NCBI GenBank assembly: GCA_052034805.1
Contig: JBPOID010000004.1
Location: 23,236 to 87,235 of the forward strand
Direction of reading: 5' to 3'
Origin: Candidatus Tayloriibacteriota bacterium
GTDB lineage: Bacteria; Patescibacteriota; Minisyncoccia; Phycocordibacterales; PALSA-1337
DNA: 64,000 nt
In this document: positions 8,500 to 52,485 of the stretch, piece after piece
Layout of the letters: the number at the start of each line of letters is the position of its first letter
Numbering within the stretch: the first letter of the stretch is position 1
The notes under the pieces: generated by a model
Seen by the model: only the letters and a program-made list of their open reading frames with translations
Databases searched by the model: none
What the model was told of the DNA's origin: nothing
Made by a program: the position numbers and the translations under genes

Positions 8500-8520
8500 G
8501 TATCCACAGACTTATCCACA
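8500..8520 (+). promoter_or_regulatory. Two tandem DnaA-box 9-mers (gTATCCACA gac TTATCCACA) embedded in a hairpin (acagac...gtctgt) in the yraN upstream region
   Basis: One perfect and one 8/9 match to TTATCCACA, 3 nt apart. Confidence 0.4.
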
Positions 8521-11310: not shown

Positions 11311-11399
11311 TATGGTTAAATTAGAGATTATAAGGAAAATCATGCATAAAAACATATATAGAAGTTATGTACAAGAAAAATAATGTATAGATAGAATCA

Positions 11400-11800
11400 C
11401 AATATGGTCATATAGACAAAACAAAACCGCGTTAATTGAACAAATTACGCAGTCCAGGTTAGGATTGAACTATATAATTTTGTTACTACAAAACGCGGTT
11501 TTTGGTGAAGTATGGAAAAGAAGGGGTCCACGGACCGATCGAAGCTGACCTCAATATCTACTATGGGAGGTTTTGCGCGTTACCTATCTAAAAAAATAAT
11601 TTCCCAGAGGGGAATAAAATAAATTGTGTTTGAAAAGGAACGCTTACCAAGCCTAAGCTGATAAAGGGTTGTCTTCTCTTCTTTATACTTCAAAAAAGAG
11701 CCTACTACCCACAAACTTTACAAAGAGCAATTGGATTGCTTCTACTCGGTTTTTATTTTGAAACATTCCTGATCTGTTTATATTCTATCATTACTAAAAG
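11400..11800. ncRNA. Candidate structured RNA of unknown identity in a 700-bp gene-free convergent intergenic region
   Basis: No ORF on either strand. Locally GC-enriched segments (ggggtccacggaccgatcgaagctgacc; ggtaacgcgcaaaacctccc). Closed by a long-range 12-bp inverted repeat caaaaccgcgtt...aacgcggttttg and several hairpins. Confidence 0.3.
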
Positions 11801-11876
11801 ACATGTAAAGGACATATAATAGGGTAACTGTGGATAAGTCCTTTATATTTTATTTGTCTTTTATAAAAGACAAAAT

Positions 11877-12711: not shown

Positions 12712-13707
12712 TTATTGACTCTTTCTGTGGAATTTCTTATGTATTTTCTTTAATTCAGTATCTGTAACATGTGTATATATTTGAGTTGTATTTATATTTG
12801 CATGACCTAAAAGCATTTGAACCGATCGCAGATCAGCACCATTTCTCAGAAGATCAGTAGCAAATGAATGTCTTATGACGTGTGGAGTTACTTTCTTGGA
12901 AATACCAGCTTTTATGGCGTATTGCTTTATTATTCTTTCAACTGAACGAGATGTTAATCTCAATGTATCTCTATTTTTAGCCAATTTATTGCTTAATTTG
13001 CTATTTTTATTATTTTCCTCACCTTTATTATCTTTATCTATACCAATAATCTGAACAAATAGGGCATCGTCCATATCTTCGCGTTTATCTAAGTATTTTT
13101 GAACAGAATTCCTAGCATCATCAGAAATAAATACAACTCTGACCTTTTCACCCTTACCACGAACGGATAATTCGTCTAATTTTAGATTAATATCCCTAGG
13201 CAAAGCGCATAATTCAGAAACACGGAGCCCTGTAGAGAATAAAAGCTCTAATATAGCCTTATCTCTTAGACCTCTTAGAGTAGATAAATTGGGAGCTTTC
13301 ATTAGTCTATCTAATTCTTCTATAGTTATAAGATCTAATGATCTTTCTGGAACCTTGGCTAATTCTATACGATCTGGTGATAGGGAAGTGATATTCTGCC
13401 TAGCCAAATATTTTAAAAAGGCACGTAAAGCAATAAGATAATAATTCTGAGTACGTTTCTTCATAGTACTCATGGCAACACCTTTTTCTTTTTTAACTTC
13501 TTGACGATTAAGCCAGATACGGAAACCTTTTACTACAGTATCTGTTATATCTTTTGGGTCTTTTAATTTAGTAAAATCAATAAAACGACTCAAATATTGA
13601 TCATAATTACGTACTGTATTCAAACTTCTACCTTTTTCTATTTCAATATATTGAAGAAATTCAGTTTTTAAATCTTTTAGATTGTGCGACATGATATAAG
13701 TATACAT
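12712..13707 (-). CDS. xerC: Tyrosine recombinase XerC/XerD family (with a low-complexity K/N-rich insertion)
   Basis: Core-binding N-terminus; catalytic C-terminus HVIRHSFATDLLRNGADLRSVQMLLGHANINTTQIYTHV. Confidence 0.85.
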   Translation of the reverse strand: MYTYIMSHNLKDLKTEFLQYIEIEKGRSLNTVRNYDQYLSRFIDFTKLKDPKDITDTVVKGFRIWLNRQEVKKEKGVAMSTMKKRTQNYYLIALRAFLKYLARQNITSLSPDRIELAKVPERSLDLITIEELDRLMKAPNLSTLRGLRDKAILELLFSTGLRVSELCALPRDINLKLDELSVRGKGEKVRVVFISDDARNSVQKYLDKREDMDDALFVQIIGIDKDNKGEENNKNSKLSNKLAKNRDTLRLTSRSVERIIKQYAIKAGISKKVTPHVIRHSFATDLLRNGADLRSVQMLLGHANINTTQIYTHVTDTELKKIHKKFHRKSQ

Positions 13708-13879
13708 TTTATTTAAAAATAATGAAAAGTATATTTATAAATACAATAAACACATAAAATATGGCTTATTTATTGACTATAAATAGATATACTGATCATC
13801 CTAAATCATTAGGTGATTCTAATCTATTGGTATATTACAAAAACACTTGACAAAATATAATAGTATGATAGGATATACG

Positions 13880-14278
13880 CAGGATGATCTTTGAAGGTTA
13901 GGTTCTTGTGAACCCCGACCAAGCTTGGTGAAAGCATGAGATTGTCCAGATAATGAGAGTACTGTTATGATTATAGTACTCATAGAAGCCAGAAAGGCCA
14001 CGCCATTATGAACGGACCTCCTACTACCACCCTGTCAATCTTTAAGAATATTAATTTCAACCCCAAGTCCGGCCCCGGCCCGTCCCAGATGAGCCGTTCG
14101 TATTAACACCACGAACGACTCAAGTTGAAGGGCTCCCTAGCTGATAAAGTTGGCGGCACACATTACAGCCAGTGTTACAGTCGGTCAGTGCCGAATACCA
14201 ACATTCGTTTAACAATGAATTCGGCCAGTGAGCTCTTCCACCCCCTACGACAAATAGTCGCAGGGGGTGTTTTTCTTA
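13880..14278 (+). ncRNA. GC-rich (roughly 55%) structured RNA candidate of about 400 nt; identity unresolved (RNase P RNA, tmRNA and SRP RNA considered)
   Basis: Sharp GC island in a 30% GC genome with no credible ORF. It ends on the plus strand with a hairpin ccccctacgac-aaata-gtcgcaggggg plus T-run at 14241-14277. Motifs like caagtccggcc and acagtcggtcagtg are reminiscent of, but do not match, RNase P conserved regions. Strand assignment rests on the terminator. Confidence 0.4.
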
Positions 14279-14295
14279 TATAACACCCCAATAAC

Positions 14296-14598
14296 TTGCA
14301 AAGTAAAGGCCTTCATGCTATTATCATGAACATGTTAACGACAAAACAAAAGGTAAAAATCATAAAAAACGTTGCAATACACGACAAGGACACTGGCTCT
14401 CCAGAGGTACAGATTTCAATATTATCAAAGAGAATAGACGAATTAGCATCACATTTAAAGAAACACAAGAAAGATAATCACTCAAGAAGAGGACTTCTAG
14501 CTATGGTAGCAGATCGCCAAGCTCATCTAGTATATTTGAAGAAGAGACATCCAAAGAGATATTCAGGAATAATAAAGAAATTAGATTTAAAGAAATAA
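14296..14598 (+). CDS. rpsO: 30S ribosomal protein S15 (likely true start at the MNMLTTKQK ATG near 14326)
   Basis: LTTKQK...HLKKHKKDNHSRRGLLAMVADRQAHLVYLKK is a canonical S15 sequence. Confidence 0.9.
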   Translation: MQSKGLHAIIMNMLTTKQKVKIIKNVAIHDKDTGSPEVQISILSKRIDELASHLKKHKKDNHSRRGLLAMVADRQAHLVYLKKRHPKRYSGIIKKLDLKK

Positions 14599-15308: not shown

Positions 15309-17186
15309 ATGAAGAAAAAAGAATACTCTATAGAAGTAGGAGGAAAGGTATTAACTGCAGAATTCAATGATCTTGCATTACAAGCAAATGGTTCAGTCAT
15401 AATGAGATATGGAAATACTGTTGTATTGGCAACAGCAGTTATGGGTAATAATGAAAAAGAAGGGGATTTCTTTCCTTTAACAGTTGATTATGAAGAAAGA
15501 TTCTATGCTTCTGGAAAAATATTGGGTAGTAGATTCATGAGAAGAGAGGGTAAACCTAGTGATGAAGCTATATTATCTGGAAGAATAGTAGATAGAACAA
15601 TACGACCACTTTTCGATAATCATATACGTCATGAAGTACAAGTAATACTTACAGTATTATCTATAGACGAAGATGATCCAGATATAATATCTGTAATAGC
15701 TGCGTCATTGGCATTGGGAGTATCTGATATACCTTGGAATGGACCGGTATCTGCTGTACGCATTGTGAAAAATGAAACATTCCATGTAAATCCAAATTAT
15801 ATACAGAGAGAAGCGGTTGGTATAAATCTAGACTTGGTAGCTTGTGGTAAAGATGGTTTTATAAATATGATAGAAGTCGCAGGAAATGAAGTTAGTGAAG
15901 ATATTGTGAATCAGGCATTATCTAAAGCTAGTGAAGAAATAGAGAAGATACAGATTTGGCAGAGAAAAATCATATCAGAAATAGGTAAAAATAAAAGAAT
16001 AATACCTAAACCAGAATTAACAAATGGCACAATTGAATTATTTGATAAAGAAATAGCCCATAAATTACCTGAATATTCTTCTACTAAAGAAAAAATAGCA
16101 GAAATAAATAAAATCTGGATGGAATTATTTATAGAAAAGATTCCAGAAGGAAATACTGTATTGGCCCAAGGATGTTTCGAAGAAAAAATGAATGATTTCA
16201 TACATCATGAAGCAATAGAAAATAATAGAAGAGTTGATGGTAGGGGATTTGATGAAATAAGACCACTTTTCGTAAAAGCTGGTGGTATATCTCCGATATT
16301 GCATGGTTCAGGAATATTCTATAGAGGTGAAACTCATGTTCTATCTGCATTAACATTGGGAGGTCCAGGAGATGCTCAAACTCAAGATGGAATGGAGAAA
16401 ACTCCAGAGAAAAGATTTATGCATCATTATAATTTTCCTCCATTTTCTACAGGAGAAACAGGTAGAGTAGGTGGTACAAATAGAAGAATGATAGGTCATG
16501 GAGCTCTTGCCGAAAAGGCTTTAGCACCAATAATACCCACCAAAGAATCTTTTCCTTATACTATACGTATAGTATCTGAGGCTTTTTCTTCTAATGGTTC
16601 TACTTCTATGGGTTCTGTATGTGGCTCTACTCTCGCACTTATGGACGCTGGTGTACCAATAAAAGCTCCAGTAGCAGGTATTGCATCTGGACTTATGATG
16701 TTAGGTAACAAATATAAAATACTTACAGACATACAAGGACCTGAGGATCATTATGGTGATATGGATTTCAAAGTAGCAGGAACTAGAGATGGTATAACTG
16801 CAGTACAAATGGATATAAAAGTAGACGGTATTCCTCTTCATGTTCTAAAAGAAGCTTTAGAAAAGGCAAAGAAAGCTAGACTACAGATTCTCGATTTAAT
16901 ATTAAGTGAAATAAAAGAACCAAGAAAAGATATTTCTCCAAATGCACCAAAAATAATAACTATTAAAATAAAAGAGAATCAAATAGGTTTAGTTATAGGT
17001 ACTGGAGGAAAAACTATTAAAGAAATAAAAGAGAAGACAAAGGTTGATGATATTACTATAGAAGATAATGGCGATGTCTTTATTACTGGCAAAAACGGTA
17101 GTGCAGAAAAAGCCAGAGATATTATCCTATATATAACCAAAGACGATCCCACAAGAATGGGTAAAGACTCTAGAAGAAGATATTGA
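15309..17186 (+). CDS. pnp: Polynucleotide phosphorylase (two RNase PH domains plus KH; no S1 domain)
   Basis: 625 aa; PNPase core motifs; KH (GLVIGTGGKTIKEI) is present but the ORF ends before any S1 domain. Confidence 0.9.
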   Translation: MKKKEYSIEVGGKVLTAEFNDLALQANGSVIMRYGNTVVLATAVMGNNEKEGDFFPLTVDYEERFYASGKILGSRFMRREGKPSDEAILSGRIVDRTIRPLFDNHIRHEVQVILTVLSIDEDDPDIISVIAASLALGVSDIPWNGPVSAVRIVKNETFHVNPNYIQREAVGINLDLVACGKDGFINMIEVAGNEVSEDIVNQALSKASEEIEKIQIWQRKIISEIGKNKRIIPKPELTNGTIELFDKEIAHKLPEYSSTKEKIAEINKIWMELFIEKIPEGNTVLAQGCFEEKMNDFIHHEAIENNRRVDGRGFDEIRPLFVKAGGISPILHGSGIFYRGETHVLSALTLGGPGDAQTQDGMEKTPEKRFMHHYNFPPFSTGETGRVGGTNRRMIGHGALAEKALAPIIPTKESFPYTIRIVSEAFSSNGSTSMGSVCGSTLALMDAGVPIKAPVAGIASGLMMLGNKYKILTDIQGPEDHYGDMDFKVAGTRDGITAVQMDIKVDGIPLHVLKEALEKAKKARLQILDLILSEIKEPRKDISPNAPKIITIKIKENQIGLVIGTGGKTIKEIKEKTKVDDITIEDNGDVFITGKNGSAEKARDIILYITKDDPTRMGKDSRRRY

Positions 17187-17202
17187 TATAATATAGCAAT
17201 AG

Positions 17203-18738
17203 ATGAGAGAAGATAATATACAAAAAGATTTTGTACAGAAACCAATCCGTACATTTGAAAGTGATATAGCAGAAGCTCTAGGCAAAGGGGCTTCTCTAGC
17301 AACTATTGCTATAGCAGAACAGAAAAGAAGAGATGAGGAAAGGAATAAAAATCAAAATATAATAAAAGAAGAAATAAATAAAGAAATAAAGGAGAATAAA
17401 AATGAAGAAGAAAAAGAAAAAACTCCAGAAGAAAAATTAGAAGAAACAGAAGAATTAGCAGAAAAAGCAAAAGATAATCTGCAGGCAGAAATAGAAAATA
17501 TAACTGGAGAAAAAAGACAGAAACCCGTAGACCAAACACAGTCAACACAGAGAGCACAGAATCTAAGACCAGATAATTCTACAGTTTATAAAAAGCCACA
17601 ATTACCTATAAATCCAGCACCAGATATGGTGAGAAGTTCTCCTATAGTCGATATAGCACCTGATATAGAAAGGGAAAAGGGCGTGTTTATAGAAAATAAT
17701 ATTCCAATACCTATACCACCAAAACCAGAAATAAAGAAAGAACCTATTATACCTAAGCCAGTAGAAATACCTGTTAAGATACAAGAGCAAATTCCTATTG
17801 CAATACCAGTAATGATTCCAAAGCCAGCACCGAAAATAGAAGAGAAACCAATAATTAAACCTTTACCTAAAATAGAACCATTACCGAAACCAGAAGCAAA
17901 AATAGTAAAGGCAACAATAAGTAATATAGACGAGGATGAAGAAGAAAATACAAATAAAGAAAAAAGAAATATATTAAAACCGTTAATTACTATTGTATTG
18001 ATAATATTATTTATTGGTGGGGGAATATATGGAGCTTATTATGTATATGAAAATAATCTATTATCTACAACCACTCCAATCGAACAGAAAATAATAATAC
18101 CTAGTATAATATCTCCTGATAAACAAATGGCTTGGAATATAGATAGTATAAATAAAACCCAACTTATACCTCAAATATATTCTCAATTTAAGAAAAATAC
18201 TCAAGAAAAAGGAAAGGTTCTTGAGTTAATACTGACACAAAAAGTGATTGATTCAGAAAAACAAACAGATAAAGCTATTTCTGGATCAACTTTCATAGAA
18301 AAATCTGGTATATCTATGCCTGATGTATTAAAGAGATCACTTACAGATAGATGGATGTTGGGATCTTATTCAGAAGAAGACGGTAGAATAACTCCATTTA
18401 TAATACTTACAACCGATTTCTTCCAAAACACCTTTGCAGGCATGCTTTCTTGGGAAAAATCTATGCCAGAAGATTTATCTTTGATATTGAATTATAGAGA
18501 AAAAGCTAAAGAAATTGATTTATTTGCTTCTTCTACTATATCTTCATATTTCAATATAAGAGGTAGTTTCGTAGATAAACAGATAATGAATAGGGATCTG
18601 AGAGAGTTTAGGGCTTCAAATGGAGAATTGTTATTCTTATACTCATTTATCAATAAAAACAGCCTGATAATAACGACAACAGAGAGTAGTCTCATAGATA
18701 TAATCAAGCGTGTTGAAAAGCAAACATATATAAGGTAA
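17203..18738 (+). CDS. Hypothetical protein: E/K-rich and Pro-rich low-complexity N-terminus, one TM helix, C-terminal globular domain
   Basis: 511 aa; PKPEIKKEPIIPKPVEIPVK-type repeats; [28 protein letters not shown]. Confidence 0.5.
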   Translation: MREDNIQKDFVQKPIRTFESDIAEALGKGASLATIAIAEQKRRDEERNKNQNIIKEEINKEIKENKNEEEKEKTPEEKLEETEELAEKAKDNLQAEIENITGEKRQKPVDQTQSTQRAQNLRPDNSTVYKKPQLPINPAPDMVRSSPIVDIAPDIEREKGVFIENNIPIPIPPKPEIKKEPIIPKPVEIPVKIQEQIPIAIPVMIPKPAPKIEEKPIIKPLPKIEPLPKPEAKIVKATISNIDEDEEENTNKEKRNILKPLITIVLIILFIGGGIYGAYYVYENNLLSTTTPIEQKIIIPSIISPDKQMAWNIDSINKTQLIPQIYSQFKKNTQEKGKVLELILTQKVIDSEKQTDKAISGSTFIEKSGISMPDVLKRSLTDRWMLGSYSEEDGRITPFIILTTDFFQNTFAGMLSWEKSMPEDLSLILNYREKAKEIDLFASSTISSYFNIRGSFVDKQIMNRDLREFRASNGELLFLYSFINKNSLIITTTESSLIDIIKRVEKQTYIR

Positions 18739-38822: not shown

Positions 38823-40166
38823 ATGAATGATCAAGATAAACTTTGGGAAAATGCTTTGGTAGAAATAGAGCTTGCTGTATCGCAAGCGAACTTTTCTACA
38901 TGGTTCAAAGATACATTCCTATTAAAGCAGGAGGATGGGGTAGTTTATCTAGGAGTTCCTAATTCTTTTACAAAAGATTGGCTATACAAGAAATTTCATA
39001 ATGTTATTTTGAGATCATTGAGAAAAATGGATGAACAAATACGTTCTTTGGACTATATAATAACCAAAGATAGTGAGAAAAAGGCCAATATGAACAAGAA
39101 ATCATCCGCAACTCCTACTATATCTATGCCTCTTCAAGATTTTTATATAAATAGAGATGATAATTTGAATCCTAGATATGTATTTGATTCATTTGTTGTT
39201 GGCCCATTCAATGAATTAGCTCATGCAGCATCAAAAACTGTAGTCAAAAGTCCAGGAACAGCTTATAACCCTCTATTTATATATGGAAATACGGGTCATG
39301 GTAAAACACATTTAATACAAGCCATAGGTAATCATATAAAACATGATTTTCCAGATAAAAAAGTGTTTTATCTGACATCAGAAAGATTCGGATCTGAATA
39401 TTTCAATGCATTACAAACAAACAAAGCCCAGCAATTCAAAGAAAAATATAGAAAATACGATGTTATTATCATGGATGATGTTCAGTTTTTCTCTGGTAAA
39501 GACAAATTCCAAGAAGAATTCTTCTATTTATTCAATACTTTTCATGAAAGCAATCGTCAATTGGTATTTTCTTGTGATAAACATCCAAACTTTATACCTG
39601 GACTAGAAGATAGAATAAAATCTAGATTCAACGCTGGTATGATAATAGAATTACCAGCTCCAGACAAAGAATCACGTATAGCAATACTGAAAGCCAAGAG
39701 CTTGAACAGTAATGTAATACTTGAAGATCAAACACTTGAATTCCTTGCCGAAAATATAGAGAGTAATGTTAGGGAATTAGAGGGTGTTGTTAATGCAGTT
39801 GTATGTCAAACTCAATTAAAAAAGAGACCTTTGTCTATCTTGGAGGTAAAAAACCTAGTTAAAAACAGTACAAAACCAAAAAAGAATATATCTATAAAAG
39901 ATGTTGTTAAGATTATATCTGATTTTTATAATATAGATGAAGAAAGTGTTTATGATAAGACAAGAAAAAAGGAAGTTGTTAAGCCAAGACAGATTATTAT
40001 GTATATTCTAAGAGAAGATCTGAATGTTTCTTTCCCATCGATAGGGGAGAAAATAGGTGGTCGAGATCATACAACAGTTATACATTCATGTGAAAAAATA
40101 AAAGAGGATTTAAAAAATAATCAGATTTTAGTCGATGAGATTTCACAGATACGGTCAATGTTGTAG
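38823..40166 (+). CDS. dnaA: Chromosomal replication initiator DnaA
   Basis: 447 aa; AAA+ Walker A GNTGHGKTHL, DnaA domain IV at the C-terminus. Confidence 0.95.
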   Translation: MNDQDKLWENALVEIELAVSQANFSTWFKDTFLLKQEDGVVYLGVPNSFTKDWLYKKFHNVILRSLRKMDEQIRSLDYIITKDSEKKANMNKKSSATPTISMPLQDFYINRDDNLNPRYVFDSFVVGPFNELAHAASKTVVKSPGTAYNPLFIYGNTGHGKTHLIQAIGNHIKHDFPDKKVFYLTSERFGSEYFNALQTNKAQQFKEKYRKYDVIIMDDVQFFSGKDKFQEEFFYLFNTFHESNRQLVFSCDKHPNFIPGLEDRIKSRFNAGMIIELPAPDKESRIAILKAKSLNSNVILEDQTLEFLAENIESNVRELEGVVNAVVCQTQLKKRPLSILEVKNLVKNSTKPKKNISIKDVVKIISDFYNIDEESVYDKTRKKEVVKPRQIIMYILREDLNVSFPSIGEKIGGRDHTTVIHSCEKIKEDLKNNQILVDEISQIRSML

Positions 40167-40388
40167 AGAATATGTTGATAAGACTGTTAATAAGTTGTGA
40201 TGGTGTTGTTTAAAAAGCTAATTATAAAGTGAATTAAAATAATTTAAGTAAAGTTATGAAAAATTATTATTTATTTATCAACAACTTAACTAATGAAAAT
40301 ATATTGATAAATAGAGACAGAATGTACTTATCAACATATCCACAGGACTAATAATAGTAATAAATTATATTTAAATAAATACAAAATT
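40167..40388. promoter_or_regulatory. dnaA-dnaN intergenic oriC candidate: at least four DnaA boxes (cTTATCAACA reverse at 40173-40181; TTATCAACA at 40275-40283 and 40328-40336; aTATCCACA at 40337-40345) with AT-rich unwinding tracts
   Basis: Box 9-mers read directly; location between dnaA and dnaN is classical. Confidence 0.6.
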
Positions 40389-41492
40389 ATGAGGATAGAA
40401 TGTTCACAAGAAAAAATAAAAGAAGCAATATCAATATCAAGACATATAATAGGGAAGAATATGACACTCCCTGTTCTTTCTTGTTTTCTTATAGAAACAA
40501 ATAAAAATAATAGTTTAATTATTAAATCAACAAATTTAGATTTAGGAATAGAGGTAGAGATACCAGCTAAAGTCATCGAGAGTGGGTCTATAGCAGTCCC
40601 AGGACAGACTTTATCATCATTTATAGATAATACCTCGGATAATGAAAAAATAATCAAAATAGAAGAAGATAAAGGCAATGTTAAAGTTATAACATCAAAA
40701 AATTCAGGAATAATAAAAACATTATCTACAGACGATTTCCCAAGTATTCCACATATAGAAAGTGACAATAAATTTACTTTATCTGCTTCTGATTTTGTAA
40801 AAGGATTAAAATCTACATGGTATAGCTCTTCTATATCAAATATAAAACCAGAATTATCTAGTGTTTATATATATTGTGAAGATGAATTTGTAACTTTTGT
40901 TGCTACAGATTCATTTCGTCTTGCTGAAAAGAGAATAAAAATGAGAAAAAGTAAGGATTTCGGTCAAATTCTTATTCCATACAAGAATATTCCTGAAATA
41001 ATAAGAGTTTTAGAAAAAATAAATAGTGATATAGAAGTTTGTTTGGAGAAAAATCAAATATCTTTTAATTATAATGGTATATATCTAACATCTAGAGTTA
41101 TAGATGGAGTTTTTCCTGATTATAAACAGATTATACCTAAACAAAGTCTCACAGAAATAATCGTATTAAAACAAGATCTTATAAATGCTTTGAAATTATC
41201 AAATGTTTTTTCTGATAAATTTAATCAGGTTAATATAAATGTTTCTTCTCTTAAGAAATGTGAAATAAAGACTAAAAATAATGATATAGGAGAGAATATA
41301 AGTCTAATAGATGCTTCTATAAAAGGGGAGTTGATAGATATTAATTTTAACTATAAATATATAATAGACTGTTTTCAATCAATAGATTCTGATAGTGTCA
41401 CTTTGATATTGAATGGTCCTCATAGACCAATGATAATATCTCCAATATCTGATAAAACATTCAGATATATAGTCATGCCTATGAATAGATAA
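40389..41492 (+). CDS. dnaN: DNA polymerase III beta sliding clamp
   Basis: 367 aa; three-domain beta-clamp; position after dnaA. Confidence 0.9.
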   Translation: MRIECSQEKIKEAISISRHIIGKNMTLPVLSCFLIETNKNNSLIIKSTNLDLGIEVEIPAKVIESGSIAVPGQTLSSFIDNTSDNEKIIKIEEDKGNVKVITSKNSGIIKTLSTDDFPSIPHIESDNKFTLSASDFVKGLKSTWYSSSISNIKPELSSVYIYCEDEFVTFVATDSFRLAEKRIKMRKSKDFGQILIPYKNIPEIIRVLEKINSDIEVCLEKNQISFNYNGIYLTSRVIDGVFPDYKQIIPKQSLTEIIVLKQDLINALKLSNVFSDKFNQVNINVSSLKKCEIKTKNNDIGENISLIDASIKGELIDINFNYKYIIDCFQSIDSDSVTLILNGPHRPMIISPISDKTFRYIVMPMNR

Positions 41493-50909: not shown

Positions 50910-51797
50910 GTGAATAAAGAACAAATAGAAAAAAGAATAAAAGAACTAGAAGACTCAATGTTTGAGCCAAGCTTTTGGAATGACAAAGATAAAGCACAGT
51001 CAGTAATATTGGAAATAAAGAAATTAAAAGAAGAGCTCGAAGGCGTGGGTAAATATGATAAAGGCAATGCTATATTATCCATACTTGCTGGTGCTGGAGG
51101 AGATGATGCAGAAGATTTCGCCATGATGCTTGTGAGAATGTATAAAAAATACTTTGACAGTGTATTCTGGTCAGTGTCTATAATCCATGAGAATACAAAT
51201 GATCATGGTGGTTATAGAAATATAACTTTAGAAGTAAAAGGGAAGGGAGTGTATGGTTTATTAAAAAATGAATCAGGTGTACATCGTCTAGTTCGTATAT
51301 CACCATTCAATGCAAATCAAAAGAGACATACATCGTTTGCTCTTGTAGAAGTTTTACCTGAATTCGAAAAGACCAAAGAAAAAGATATGGAAATAAATGA
51401 GAATGATATAGAAGTATCAATAGCGAAATCAGGAGGTCCAGGTGGTCAAAATGTAAATAAAAGAGAAACAGCAGTAAGACTTGTACATAAACCAACAGGT
51501 ATATCTATACATGTAACAAGCGAACGTTCTCAAGCTCAGAATAAAGAAAAAGCTTTCGATATACTCAGGGCTAAACTCTGGAAGAAAATGGAAAGTGACA
51601 GATTGGCAAAAGAAAAAGGTATGCAGATTTCCTCTACAACATCTATAGAATGGGGGAATCAAATACGTTCTTATGTTATGCATCCATATAAAATGGTAAA
51701 AGATCATAGAACCGGTTTAGAAACTGCCCAAGTTGATAAGGTTTTTGATGGAGAAATAGAAGGATTCCTACAAGCTGAAAAGGATATTGTGATATAA
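50910..51797 (+). CDS. prfB: Peptide chain release factor 2 (reduced N-terminal domain; GTG start; no frameshift site evident)
   Basis: SPF tripeptide ([16 protein letters not shown]) and GGQ motif ([17 protein letters not shown]); 295 aa. Confidence 0.85.
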
Positions 51798-51804
51798 TCA
51801 AAGT

Positions 51805-52485
51805 ATGATTTATTTCGATAAAGTTACAAAGGTTTACCCAGATGAATCTATAGCATTAGACGGTGTAAGTTTCGCTGTAGAACCAAAAGAATTCATAACA
51901 ATAGTTGGTCATTCTGGTGCTGGAAAAACTACCCTAATAAAGATGCTTATAGCCGAAGACAAACCTACTGATGGGGCTATATTCTTTGAATCAAAGAATA
52001 TACATAAATTAAAAAGAAAAGATATGAATAAATTAAGACGTCGTATCGGTACTGTCTTTCAAGATTTTCGTCTTATACCTAACAAAACTGCTTATGAAAA
52101 CATAGCTTTCGCTATGGAAGTTTCTGGACATACAGATAAAGAAATAGCATCAGATGTTCCTTATGTATTAGATTTGGTTGATCTAGGTGATAAGATGTGG
52201 AATTTCCCTCATCAACTTTCTGGCGGAGAGAAACAAAGAGTAGCTATAGCTAGAGCCATAGTCAATCAGCCAGATATAATAATAGCCGACGAACCAACAG
52301 GAAGCGTTGATCCTATAAATACCTATGGAATTATAAAAATTTTACAGAAAATAAATGAATTAGGAACTACTATACTTATGACAACTCATAATAAAGGAGT
52401 TGTAGATACTGTAGGTGGAAGAGTTATAACAATGGAAAAAGGCAAAGTTGTAAGAGATGATAAAGAGGGAAAATATATTCTATAA
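51805..52485 (+). CDS. ftsE: Cell division ATP-binding protein FtsE
   Basis: ABC ATPase with GHSGAGKTT, LSGGEKQR, IIADEPTG; followed by ftsX. Confidence 0.9.
   Translation: MIYFDKVTKVYPDESIALDGVSFAVEPKEFITIVGHSGAGKTTLIKMLIAEDKPTDGAIFFESKNIHKLKRKDMNKLRRRIGTVFQDFRLIPNKTAYENIAFAMEVSGHTDKEIASDVPYVLDLVDLGDKMWNFPHQLSGGEKQRVAIARAIVNQPDIIIADEPTGSVDPINTYGIIKILQKINELGTTILMTTHNKGVVDTVGGRVITMEKGKVVRDDKEGKYIL

Follow-up and report, generated by a model that had tools for sequence, protein, structure and literature searches.

In a 64,000-nucleotide (nt) stretch of contig JBPOID010000004.1, referred to here as the window, the intergenic region between a xerC-like recombinase gene and rpsO (positions 13708-14295) contains a GC-rich element. 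The element is best explained as a lineage-specific, accessory, fast-evolving, structured and possibly dual-function small RNA gene of one Patescibacteria genus that carries a short open reading frame (ORF), and we hold this explanation with about even confidence. If it is right, then a very strong promoter would drive a GC-rich, highly folded transcript of about 395 nt, which would be ended by its own terminator and would stop just 5' of a separate, apparently leaderless rpsO promoter. Such a layout would be that of a structured small messenger RNA (mRNA) or of a dual-function small RNA (sRNA). Within the transcript, the 5' domain would pair the extreme 5' end and so might shield the RNA from decay that depends on that end, a small hairpin would then expose a Shine-Dalgarno (SD)-like GAAAGG, a 32-codon frame (ORF-A) would be translated next, and a variable GC-rich 3' domain would come last. 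Translating and pausing on ORF-A would act in cis on the folding or stability of the RNA, or on the exposure of its other parts.

The GC content of the window is 31.5% overall, and region 13708-14295 has the highest GC of any of its intergenic regions, with 55% in the best 150-nt stretch. The GC-rich island described in the initial annotation of this DNA is thus real, but its GC, given there as well over 50%, comes to 48% across the predicted transcript of about 395 nt (47-51% in 200-nt windows). For comparison, GC is 15.5% at fourfold-degenerate sites of the host's genes and 19% in the adjoining spacer.

Transcription signals and predicted fold

The window copy of the element (W) was compared with copies at loci fetched from relatives, which are designated by L-numbers. 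The features of W are as follows.

13847-13874, plus strand: sigma-70-type promoter, with -35 box TTGACA at 13847-13852, a 16-nt spacer and an extended -10 box TGaTAGGAT at 13866-13874
13882-13947, plus strand: 5' structured domain, whose closing helix (13882-13890 with 13939-13947) pairs the extreme 5' end
13896-13898 with 13918-13920, plus strand: helix GGU/ACC within the 5' domain
13901-13905 with 13910-13914, plus strand: hairpin GGUUC/GAACC within the 5' domain
13923-13926 with 13932-13935, plus strand: hairpin GCUU/AAGC within the 5' domain
13957-13981, plus strand: second hairpin, inverted repeat GAGUACU...AGUACUC, present in the minimum free energy (MFE) folds
13988-13998, plus strand: small hairpin GCC-AGAAA-GGC, displaying the SD-like GAAAGG at 13992-13997
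14008-14106, plus strand: ORF-A, 32 codons plus stop, MNGPPTTTLSIFKNINFNPKSGPGPSQMSRSY
14107-14238, plus strand: variable 3' domain, 49% GC, strongly folded, with hairpin 14090-14101/14111-14122 included
14239-14276, plus strand: intrinsic terminator, CACCCCCUaCGAC-AAAUA-GUCGcAGGGGGUG followed by UUUUUCU

The promoter matches the consensus at 10 of 12 positions, with TG present, and transcription is predicted to start near A13881/G13882. The promoter core, TTGACA-N8-TAGTATGATAGGAT, is found again in L087 and L090, and L106 has a one-base variant (TAGTATGATAGGGT). The motif is generic as well as strong: in a metagenome scan with the promoter pattern it also preceded unrelated genes, and the one true family locus that was returned was already known. 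At the other end, the canonical plus-strand terminator named in the initial annotation is confirmed, with 12 of 13 positions of its arms paired (14239-14251 with 14257-14269; -21.8 kcal/mol) and TTTTT following. Its ending, ...GGGGUGUUUUUCUU, is kept in L087 and L090, and a terminator hairpin closes every family member, at -18 to -31 kcal/mol in the six captured; that of L102 was seen in the fold.

The RNA of about 395 nt has an MFE of -122.6 kcal/mol, compared with -95.3 +/- 5.3 in dinucleotide shuffles (z = -5.2). Similarly, all six members fold better than their shuffles (z from -2.0 to -5.6), with a GC content of 44-50%. The reverse strand of the element scores as well, and fold energy alone therefore gives no strand. 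The predicted folds are multi-domain, and the 5' and 3' ends of the element are unpaired in them.

In the covariation test of the 5' domain, 97.9% of cells are paired between W and L087. Three compensatory changes from U-A to C-G lie in three different helices, with none in slid registers, and they account for 6 of the approximately 10 substitutions between the two copies within the domain. When L087 alone is folded by RNAfold the same architecture is recovered, and L106 keeps both the 5' sequence and the 5'-terminal closing helix, the helix being assigned from visual inspection and the MFE fold. Given the compensatory pairs, the RNAfold agreement in L087 and the closing helix in L106, the 5' domain is, on this comparative evidence, a selected RNA structure. 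The proposal of a structured RNA gene in the initial annotation is thus supported by the promoter, the terminator, the z score and the compensatory changes, and structure prediction and comparison with relatives give a stable fold with covariation in the 5' domain.

Further downstream, a hairpin of unrelated sequence in L087 may be the positional equivalent of the one at 13957-13981. The SD-like GAAAGG sits 10 nt 5' of the ORF-A start and has a mean probability of being unpaired of 0.58; the GCC-loop-GGC hairpin with AAAGG is kept in L087 and L090. The sequence of the 3' domain is not conserved, not even in L087, the closest relative. A 52-codon open frame within it is not conserved in relatives and has no homologue among 5.8 billion proteins.

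Occurrence and divergence among relatives

The gene order cca-exoIII-xerC-slot-rpsO-NYN-pnp is widely kept, with a slot of about 60 to 590 nt. Searches of 80 pnp-anchored species-level GTDB loci with nhmmer, blastn and tblastx returned no homologue of the element, and in the closest species representatives (PNPase at most 72% identical) the slot either lacks the element or contains unrelated inserts (L007, L020). The contents of the slot were also compared in a graded series of contigs taken from XerC homologues at 72-94% identity.

Slot with a recognisable homologue of 230-480 nt: L087 (XerC 94%), L090/L091 (86%), L102/L104, L105, L106
Slot with a different small unit of promoter, short ORF and terminator: L110
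Slot empty: L088, L092, L107, L112 (XerC 74-86% identical)

From this distribution, the element is optional within a single genus. Sequences from its carriers can hardly be aligned except at the promoter, in the 5' domain and over the first five ORF-A codons; the members are too divergent and too modular for a whole-family alignment or a common fold, and covariation is testable for the 5' domain of W and L087 only. Between these two copies, fourfold-degenerate sites of the flanking genes are 58% identical, which is near saturation. The corresponding identities for the parts of the element and for the spacer are as follows.

Promoter: 89%
5' domain: 80%
ORF-A: 55%
3' domain: 49%, no better than neutral
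AT-rich spacer (xerC to -35 box): 58%

The GC content of the element stays at 0.48, although mutation alone would lead to an equilibrium near 0.16-0.19. Because neutral divergence is saturated and yet 44-50% GC and a stable fold persist, it would seem that composition and foldedness must be held by selection, or else that the sequence must be repeatedly replaced; in either case the primary sequence of the 3' two-thirds would be free.

These comparisons bear on the possibility that the element is an evolutionary leftover with no current function, whether decaying foreign DNA from a GC-richer, SD-using source or the remains of a once longer protein gene, of which the promoter remains. A leftover would account for GC content and SD usage that are foreign to the host, for the approximately neutral rate at which most of the sequence diverges, for the patchy distribution with other slot contents in L007 (a 71-aa ORF), L020 and L110, and for the in-frame stop that truncates ORF-A in L105. 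However, neutral DNA should have reached the GC of the spacer (0.19), yet 0.44-0.50 GC and the fold persist in six lineages, and four features have been retained: promoter, 5' domain, terminator and the start of ORF-A. Additionally, the searches gave no translated homology of the element to any protein, and blastn against phages and plasmids gave no match. The degraded protein-coding remnant that the initial annotation had allowed for is likewise left unsupported by the empty translated homology searches, and a functionless leftover of either kind is considered quite unlikely.

The slot itself is a hotspot, in which different lineages have different small inserts. For instance, the slot of L007 (3430-3720) holds a 71-codon ORF with its own terminator, that of L020 (1715-2010) an unrelated promoter-driven GC-rich unit of about 300 nt, that of L110 (1720-2000, reverse complement) an SD-led 17-codon ORF unit (MEYPTTGAILPTEVAPT), and that of L024 (3660-3810) a long inverted repeat (GCCCCCACACCCAC...GTGGGTGTGGGGGC-like). 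The variable slots of relatives yielded no integration-site repeats, and no mobile-element signatures, either direct repeats or a dif-like site, were found at the element. An AT-rich, 84% complementary 19-nt inverted repeat (13828-13846, TGGTATATTACAAAAACAC; 14267-14285, GTGTTTTTCTTATATAACA) brackets the element exactly, from just 5' of the -35 box to the terminator U-tract. This repeat was the sole candidate for a mobile element, which was rejected, as the repeat is not convincingly reproduced in relatives; for the same reason it may be due to chance. A conserved TATAAGTATAC beside xerC is best read as the -10 box of xerC. The suggestion in the initial annotation that adjacency to a recombinase gene could mark an integration target thus has no direct support, as neither a transfer RNA (tRNA) nor a transfer-messenger RNA (tmRNA) is present there and no repeats convincing as att or dif sites were seen, though the slot is clearly variable.

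Short reading frames and Shine-Dalgarno boxes

The island had been described as non-coding, with no ORF of credible composition on either strand. The 60-aa minus-strand ORF was correctly set aside, as it has no Pfam match and in L087 is interrupted by both a stop codon and a frameshift. In contrast, relatives have conserved counterparts of ORF-A that form an ORF family, and a conserved short ORF inside the element speaks against a purely non-coding nature. Seven ORF-A copies across six lineages open with M-(N/K)-x-[S/G]-P-P, and only the N-terminal M-N-[S/G]-P-P is conserved family-wide, over lengths of 16-32 codons. Serine is specified by AGC in three of the copies and by TCG in two others, and in 15 of 15 proline codons CC is constant and the third base is variable. 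Some motifs are shared by sub-groups (NITV in L090 and L106; PPVGV in L102 and L105). Beyond the DNA-conserved 5' end, translated similarity among distant members falls in the ORF-A frame, and in the window and the fetched loci (about 0.9 Mb) the start motif is found in these elements only. The codon-type variation, the shared frame and the unique start motif are therefore taken together as a sign of peptide-level selection on ORF-A, and the variation indicates that selection would act on the translated peptide with constraint on the first five residues only.

Other properties of ORF-A are less uniform. The C-termini differ (...SRSY, ...SGRF, ...PAVA). The peptides are polar, with a high Pro, Gly and Ser content, and none contains 18 or more hydrophobic residues in a row. 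The 3' end of ORF-A in the window overlaps a GC-rich motif, CCGGCCCCGGCC. In L105 the SD-plus-ORF unit is duplicated within a single transcript, and an in-frame stop cuts ORF-A short ahead of a motif encoding PGPG. No relatives of ORF-A were found in Pfam or among 1.84 billion representative proteins, and no candidate peptide or ORF of the element has a Pfam match. A scan of viral contigs for the SD-plus-ORF-A motif gave 14 chance-like matches in unrelated contexts.

Initiation signals in the element differ from those of the host. Among 47 window genes of at least 150 aa, none has an SD 5-mer and two have any SD 4-mer, compared with 10% in a random background. Many window starts instead lie 6-8 nt past a TATAAT-like box (for instance 13692-13707, 14319-14333, 17178-17205 and 51780-51807), which implies that leaderless mRNAs may be widespread, those of xerC and rpsO included, and the host appears to initiate translation essentially without SD sequences. 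On the sense strands of the family, AAGGAG occurs 5 times (0.6 expected), AAAGG 14 times (2.8 expected) and an SD plus start codon 13 times (1.5 expected), and none of 500 shuffles reached any of these counts. The density of SD-plus-start sites is 5.5 per kb in the elements and 0.52 per kb in the remaining genome, and the antisense strand of the elements has only three. Every ORF-A copy has an ATG 3-10 nt 3' of an SD-like box. Relatives additionally have mini-ORFs of 5-7 codons behind a perfect AAAGGAG: MKPFT in L087, MKPFL and MKPFT in L106, MKAPLE in L090 and MKKMHPT in L105. The MKPFT/MKPFL unit with its AAAGGAG box is kept between L087 and L106 even though neutral sites are saturated.

If the element were instead a purely non-coding regulatory sRNA, then its C-rich stretches (CCNCC at the 'Pro-Pro' codons) and AAGGAG boxes would be RNA interaction sites, acting as base-pairing seeds or as a binding or sponge site for the anti-SD tail of 16S rRNA or for a protein, and the ORF would be incidental. 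Several observations are compatible with this. A strong fold and GC content are kept without sequence conservation, the content of C equals or exceeds that of G, with several C-rich tracts, and ACCUCCU in codons 3-5 of ORF-A is exactly the anti-SD core. SD-like boxes need not signal translation in a host genome without SD usage, and CCGGCnCCGG is kept in L105 past the ORF-A stop, which points to constraint at the nucleotide level. However, the conserved site has codon periodicity, with CC constant and the third base free in the 15 proline codons, and a serine that is held through a change from AGC to TCG is hard to reconcile with RNA pairing. The ATG that follows an SD-like box at 3-10 nt in all copies, and the translated similarity in the ORF-A frame, also argue against it, and a purely non-coding role is regarded as unlikely. 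As for pairing with a neighbouring conserved RNA, an 8-nt complementarity between AGGUUAGG of the element and CCUAACCU, which is invariant in that RNA, is expected by chance and is absent in other family members, and this candidate was rejected.

Under the favoured explanation, an sORF-bearing structured RNA, what ORF-A contributes could be either its peptide or the act of translating it. Consecutive proline codons stall ribosomes and need EF-P, and the stalls alter coupling to transcription and termination (PMC5021804). Since only five codons are conserved, a Pro-Pro pause lies among them, length and sequence are otherwise free and the unit is duplicated in L105, we lean towards a role of translation in cis over a folded-protein role of the peptide.

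A related possibility is that the element is a ribosome-mediated attenuator or leader for rpsO-NYN-pnp, in which translation of the short ORFs and Pro-Pro pausing would set terminator read-through and so supplement the rpsO promoter. The element lies directly upstream of rpsO in the same orientation, short ORFs followed by a terminator form the classical attenuator layout, the last short ORF stops 6-26 nt ahead of the terminator stem in L110, L102 and L106, and pauses that depend on EF-P are known to influence intrinsic termination (PMC5021804). As in leader and arrest peptides and their attenuators (trp, his and thr leaders, ermCL, SecM), a very short ORF with conservation centred on a pause motif lies in RNA prone to alternative structures and precedes a terminator and a same-orientation gene. 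In contrast to attenuators, no regulated cistron lies inside the element's transcript, and rpsO has its own promoter, conserved at leaderless distance with or without the element. The pause motif is at codons 4-5 rather than near the C-terminus as in leader peptides, and the distance from stop to terminator varies among family members, from 6 to 132 nt. At 132 nt in the window, this inconsistent spacing makes a classical ribosome-terminator attenuator unlikely for the window copy. Where measured, the terminators are also strong, and the lack of the element in four close relatives would be odd for control of a ribosomal-protein operon. An attenuator is considered rather unlikely.

A type I toxin-antitoxin-like module, with the element as a toxin mRNA whose fold would limit translation of a short toxic peptide, was also weighed. 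The element resembles the mRNAs of hok, ldr, tisB, fst and aapA in being a long, stable, folded small mRNA with a conserved 5' structured domain and a tiny ORF, and in its patchy, lineage-specific, fast-evolving and, among close relatives, single-locus distribution. Unlike the membrane-active hydrophobic peptides of this class, however, the predicted peptides are hydrophilic, Pro/Gly/Ser-rich and without a segment of transmembrane-helix length, and only five of their residues are conserved. No conserved minus-strand promoter, terminator or other feature was found within the element, although weak promoters could escape a sequence scan, and no antisense RNA partner is evident. Pfam gave no match, the PADLOC and NCBIfam libraries lying outside the search. 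A toxin mRNA is very unlikely.

Finally, the element could be a dedicated ribosome-engaging RNA, in which strong SD boxes, micro-ORFs such as MKPFT and the Pro-Pro pause would capture or report ribosomes or the free anti-SD tail of 16S rRNA. We regard this as a rather doubtful proposal. If it were true, the element would be a translation-status sensor or a ribosome sponge, and its GC-rich body would be selected only to stay folded.

Several observations weigh against the interpretation of the element as a structured, sORF-bearing sRNA gene. Its transcription and translation are deduced from sequence signals only, and the host barely uses SD sequences, which leaves SD-led initiation in this host unproven. 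The window copy has no SD-led mini-ORFs, and its ORF-A has the weakest SD of the family (GAAAGG with a 10-nt spacer). Beyond the 5' domain no common secondary structure can be aligned family-wide. The covariation has a depth of two to three sequences, at which the shuffle control is uninformative (55/500), and the six lineages sampled were all reached through synteny.

Known RNA classes and the surrounding region

RNase P RNA, tmRNA and a large signal recognition particle (SRP) RNA had been put forward in the initial annotation as identities for the island. A diverged housekeeping RNA (RNase P RNA, tmRNA, SRP RNA or 6S RNA) would fit the size of about 395-400 nt, the GC enrichment in an AT-rich genome, the stable fold and the terminator at its end. 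With Rfam 15 at gathering thresholds, however, the whole window gave five tRNAs only. At E<=10, both strands of 13700-14400 gave only terminator noise of 13-19 bits (tsr31, RsaE and a CRISPR direct repeat), and thus no RNase P, tmRNA, SRP or 6S covariance-model match. ARAGORN found no tmRNA in the window or in seven relatives. A negative Rfam search is not decisive alone, because RNase P RNAs of the Candidate Phyla Radiation (CPR) can score about 5 bits and fall below Rfam thresholds (PMC8172020). Signature motifs were therefore of interest too, and no T-loop or CCA signature is present in six family members. The conserved regions CR-I and CR-V of RNase P RNA are universally conserved and form the P4 helix. 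With at most one mismatch, CR-I (GAGGAAAGUCC) is present in no member, except for an off-register GGAAAATCC in L087; CR-V (ACAGAAnnCGGCUUA) is absent in all six members scanned, and no P4 motif is conserved across members. In the window as a whole there is likewise nothing resembling CR-I. The short RNase P-like motifs pointed out in the initial annotation are conserved in no homologue; one of them, AAGUCCGG, occurs in the window copy only and lacks a CCGGCUU partner downstream.

The other candidates were similarly rejected. In tmRNA the tag frame lacks a start codon and ends in a hydrophobic (A/L)AA-type tag; the element has neither acceptor-stem pairing of its ends nor a T-arm (GGUUCGAnUCC), and ORF-A has an ATG behind an SD-like box and variable C-termini. 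SRP RNA was rejected on the absence of an Rfam match at E<=10, with no separate search for the domain IV motif. 6S RNA forms a rod of about 180-200 nt whose ends pair and whose centre opens into a large bubble; the element is about 395 nt long, its predicted fold is multi-domain with unpaired ends, its presence is patchy and Rfam gave no 6S match. Unlike these RNAs, the element lacks their defining motifs, is dispensable in close relatives and evolves approximately neutrally over two-thirds of its length. Because four close relatives have nothing in the slot, which is where the element was looked for in them, and the carriers are so divergent as to be unalignable, an essential housekeeping RNA is excluded, and the identities first proposed are not upheld; a diverged housekeeping RNA of any of these kinds is extremely improbable.

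A second structured RNA of about 375 nt is predicted 2 kb from the element (approximately 11398-11775, minus strand), where the convergent genes cca and exoIII leave a gap of 712 nt. Its promoter, TTTACA-16-TGaTAGAAT (11809-11782), is invariant, and a perfect, invariant DnaA box (11829-11837) lies just upstream. All genus-level loci with cca-exoIII retained contain this RNA, empty-slot loci included (nhmmer/profile E 1e-58 to 1e-122). Equivalents lie on the plus strand of the following loci.

L087, 4884-5260
L088, 4866-5268
L092, 4901-5311
L110, 3837-4242
L102, 3877-4236
L107, 3852-4241
L105, 3846-4235
L112, 3865-4260

Its 198-nt core is 100% identical between W and L087, compared with 58% at synonymous sites, and the invariant islands are AACCGAGGA, GGGUAGUAG, GACAACCC, GGUCAGUUU and UCUAACCU. 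Long-range helices are nested, 17 of 28 RNAalifold pairs keep pairing via double changes, and one hairpin has a constant UGUG loop on a co-varying stem. Rfam (E<=10), ARAGORN and scans for P4 and T-loop motifs were all negative, and a covariance model of the core had no match in 36 more distant loci outside the genus. These searches do not support the second RNA being RNase P RNA or tmRNA, or being widely conserved, and these readings were rejected. The central rod of about 185 nt, closed by a 7-bp stem, loosely recalls 6S RNA as a resemblance only, and a 36-codon ORF within the RNA is not conserved and has no Pfam match. Judging by this conservation, the second RNA is the one that behaves like a core gene in the neighbourhood, and it may be the more important RNA gene there.

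The host was placed by PNPase-anchored GTDB loci as a Patescibacteria bacterium of the Paceibacteria/Nomurabacteria type. To the left of the element, the tyrosine recombinase gene (12712-13707, minus strand) encodes Phage_integrase and SAM-like domains. The XerC-like protein of the window (326-331 aa) has a Lys/Asn-rich low-complexity insertion (…DKDNKGEENNKNSKLSNKLAKN…) at residues ~222-250, and its homologues in the genus are mostly shorter (308-316 aa). Some database entries label the family 'site-specific tyrosine recombinase/integron integrase', and no attC-like or cassette features of integrons were noticed. To the right, rpsO (S15; 14331-14598, plus strand) has the same orientation as the element. 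Its promoter (14296-14324) is TTGCAA-17-TGCTATTAT, and ATG 14331 is 6 nt past the -10 box; the S15 mRNA thus seems to be leaderless, without a 5' untranslated region for the usual S15 autoregulatory structure, and Rfam gave no S15-leader match. Elsewhere in the window, four DnaA boxes with one mismatch each cluster at 40173-40344, between ORFs 38823-40166 and 40389-41492, which are presumably dnaA and dnaN. The most AT-rich intergenic region of the window (40167-40330, GC 0.20) holds this cluster, which is probably the replication origin. Perfect DnaA boxes are present at 8512-8520 and 11829-11837.

Among described systems, the favoured interpretation places the element closest to dual-function sRNAs encoding peptides of fewer than 50 aa, which are a known class (PMC12310071, PMC12612679). 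Like SR1/SR1P of Bacillus subtilis, RNAIII/delta-hemolysin of Staphylococcus aureus, SgrS/SgrT and VcdRP, it is a short structured RNA that has, by its sequence signals, its own promoter and terminator. Its predicted ORF of fewer than 50 codons has a coding-type pattern in seven copies and enriched SD-plus-ATG sites, in a host that rarely uses SD. Activity at the RNA level is suggested indirectly by sequence outside the ORF that is apparently selected, namely the conserved 5' fold with its covariation and the maintained GC and fold of the 3' part. Unlike these RNAs, the element has no identified base-pairing target or seed, and its peptide is conserved in the first five residues only, whereas SR1P and SgrT are conserved over their full length. 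Tandem micro-ORFs of 5-7 codons in relatives, optional presence in a single CPR genus and the lack of any sequence or Rfam relationship set it further apart.

To our knowledge, almost nothing is known of the small RNAs and micro-proteins of the CPR, whose very small genomes are generally credited with little capacity for regulation. The element would indicate that at least one genus of the Paceibacteria type maintains a structured RNA that is optional, has a strong promoter and contains a conserved mini-ORF, and whose GC content and fold are upheld against a very strong mutational bias towards AT. A false lead is also removed, as the element is not a missing rnpB or ssrA, and a GC-rich island in an AT-rich genome is not by itself proof of a housekeeping RNA. 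If the element should be a ribosome-engaging RNA, it would represent a regulatory principle undescribed for CPR bacteria. Predicted SD-led micro-ORFs, set against genes that are otherwise SD-free and largely leaderless, would additionally offer a testable handle on translation initiation in the CPR.

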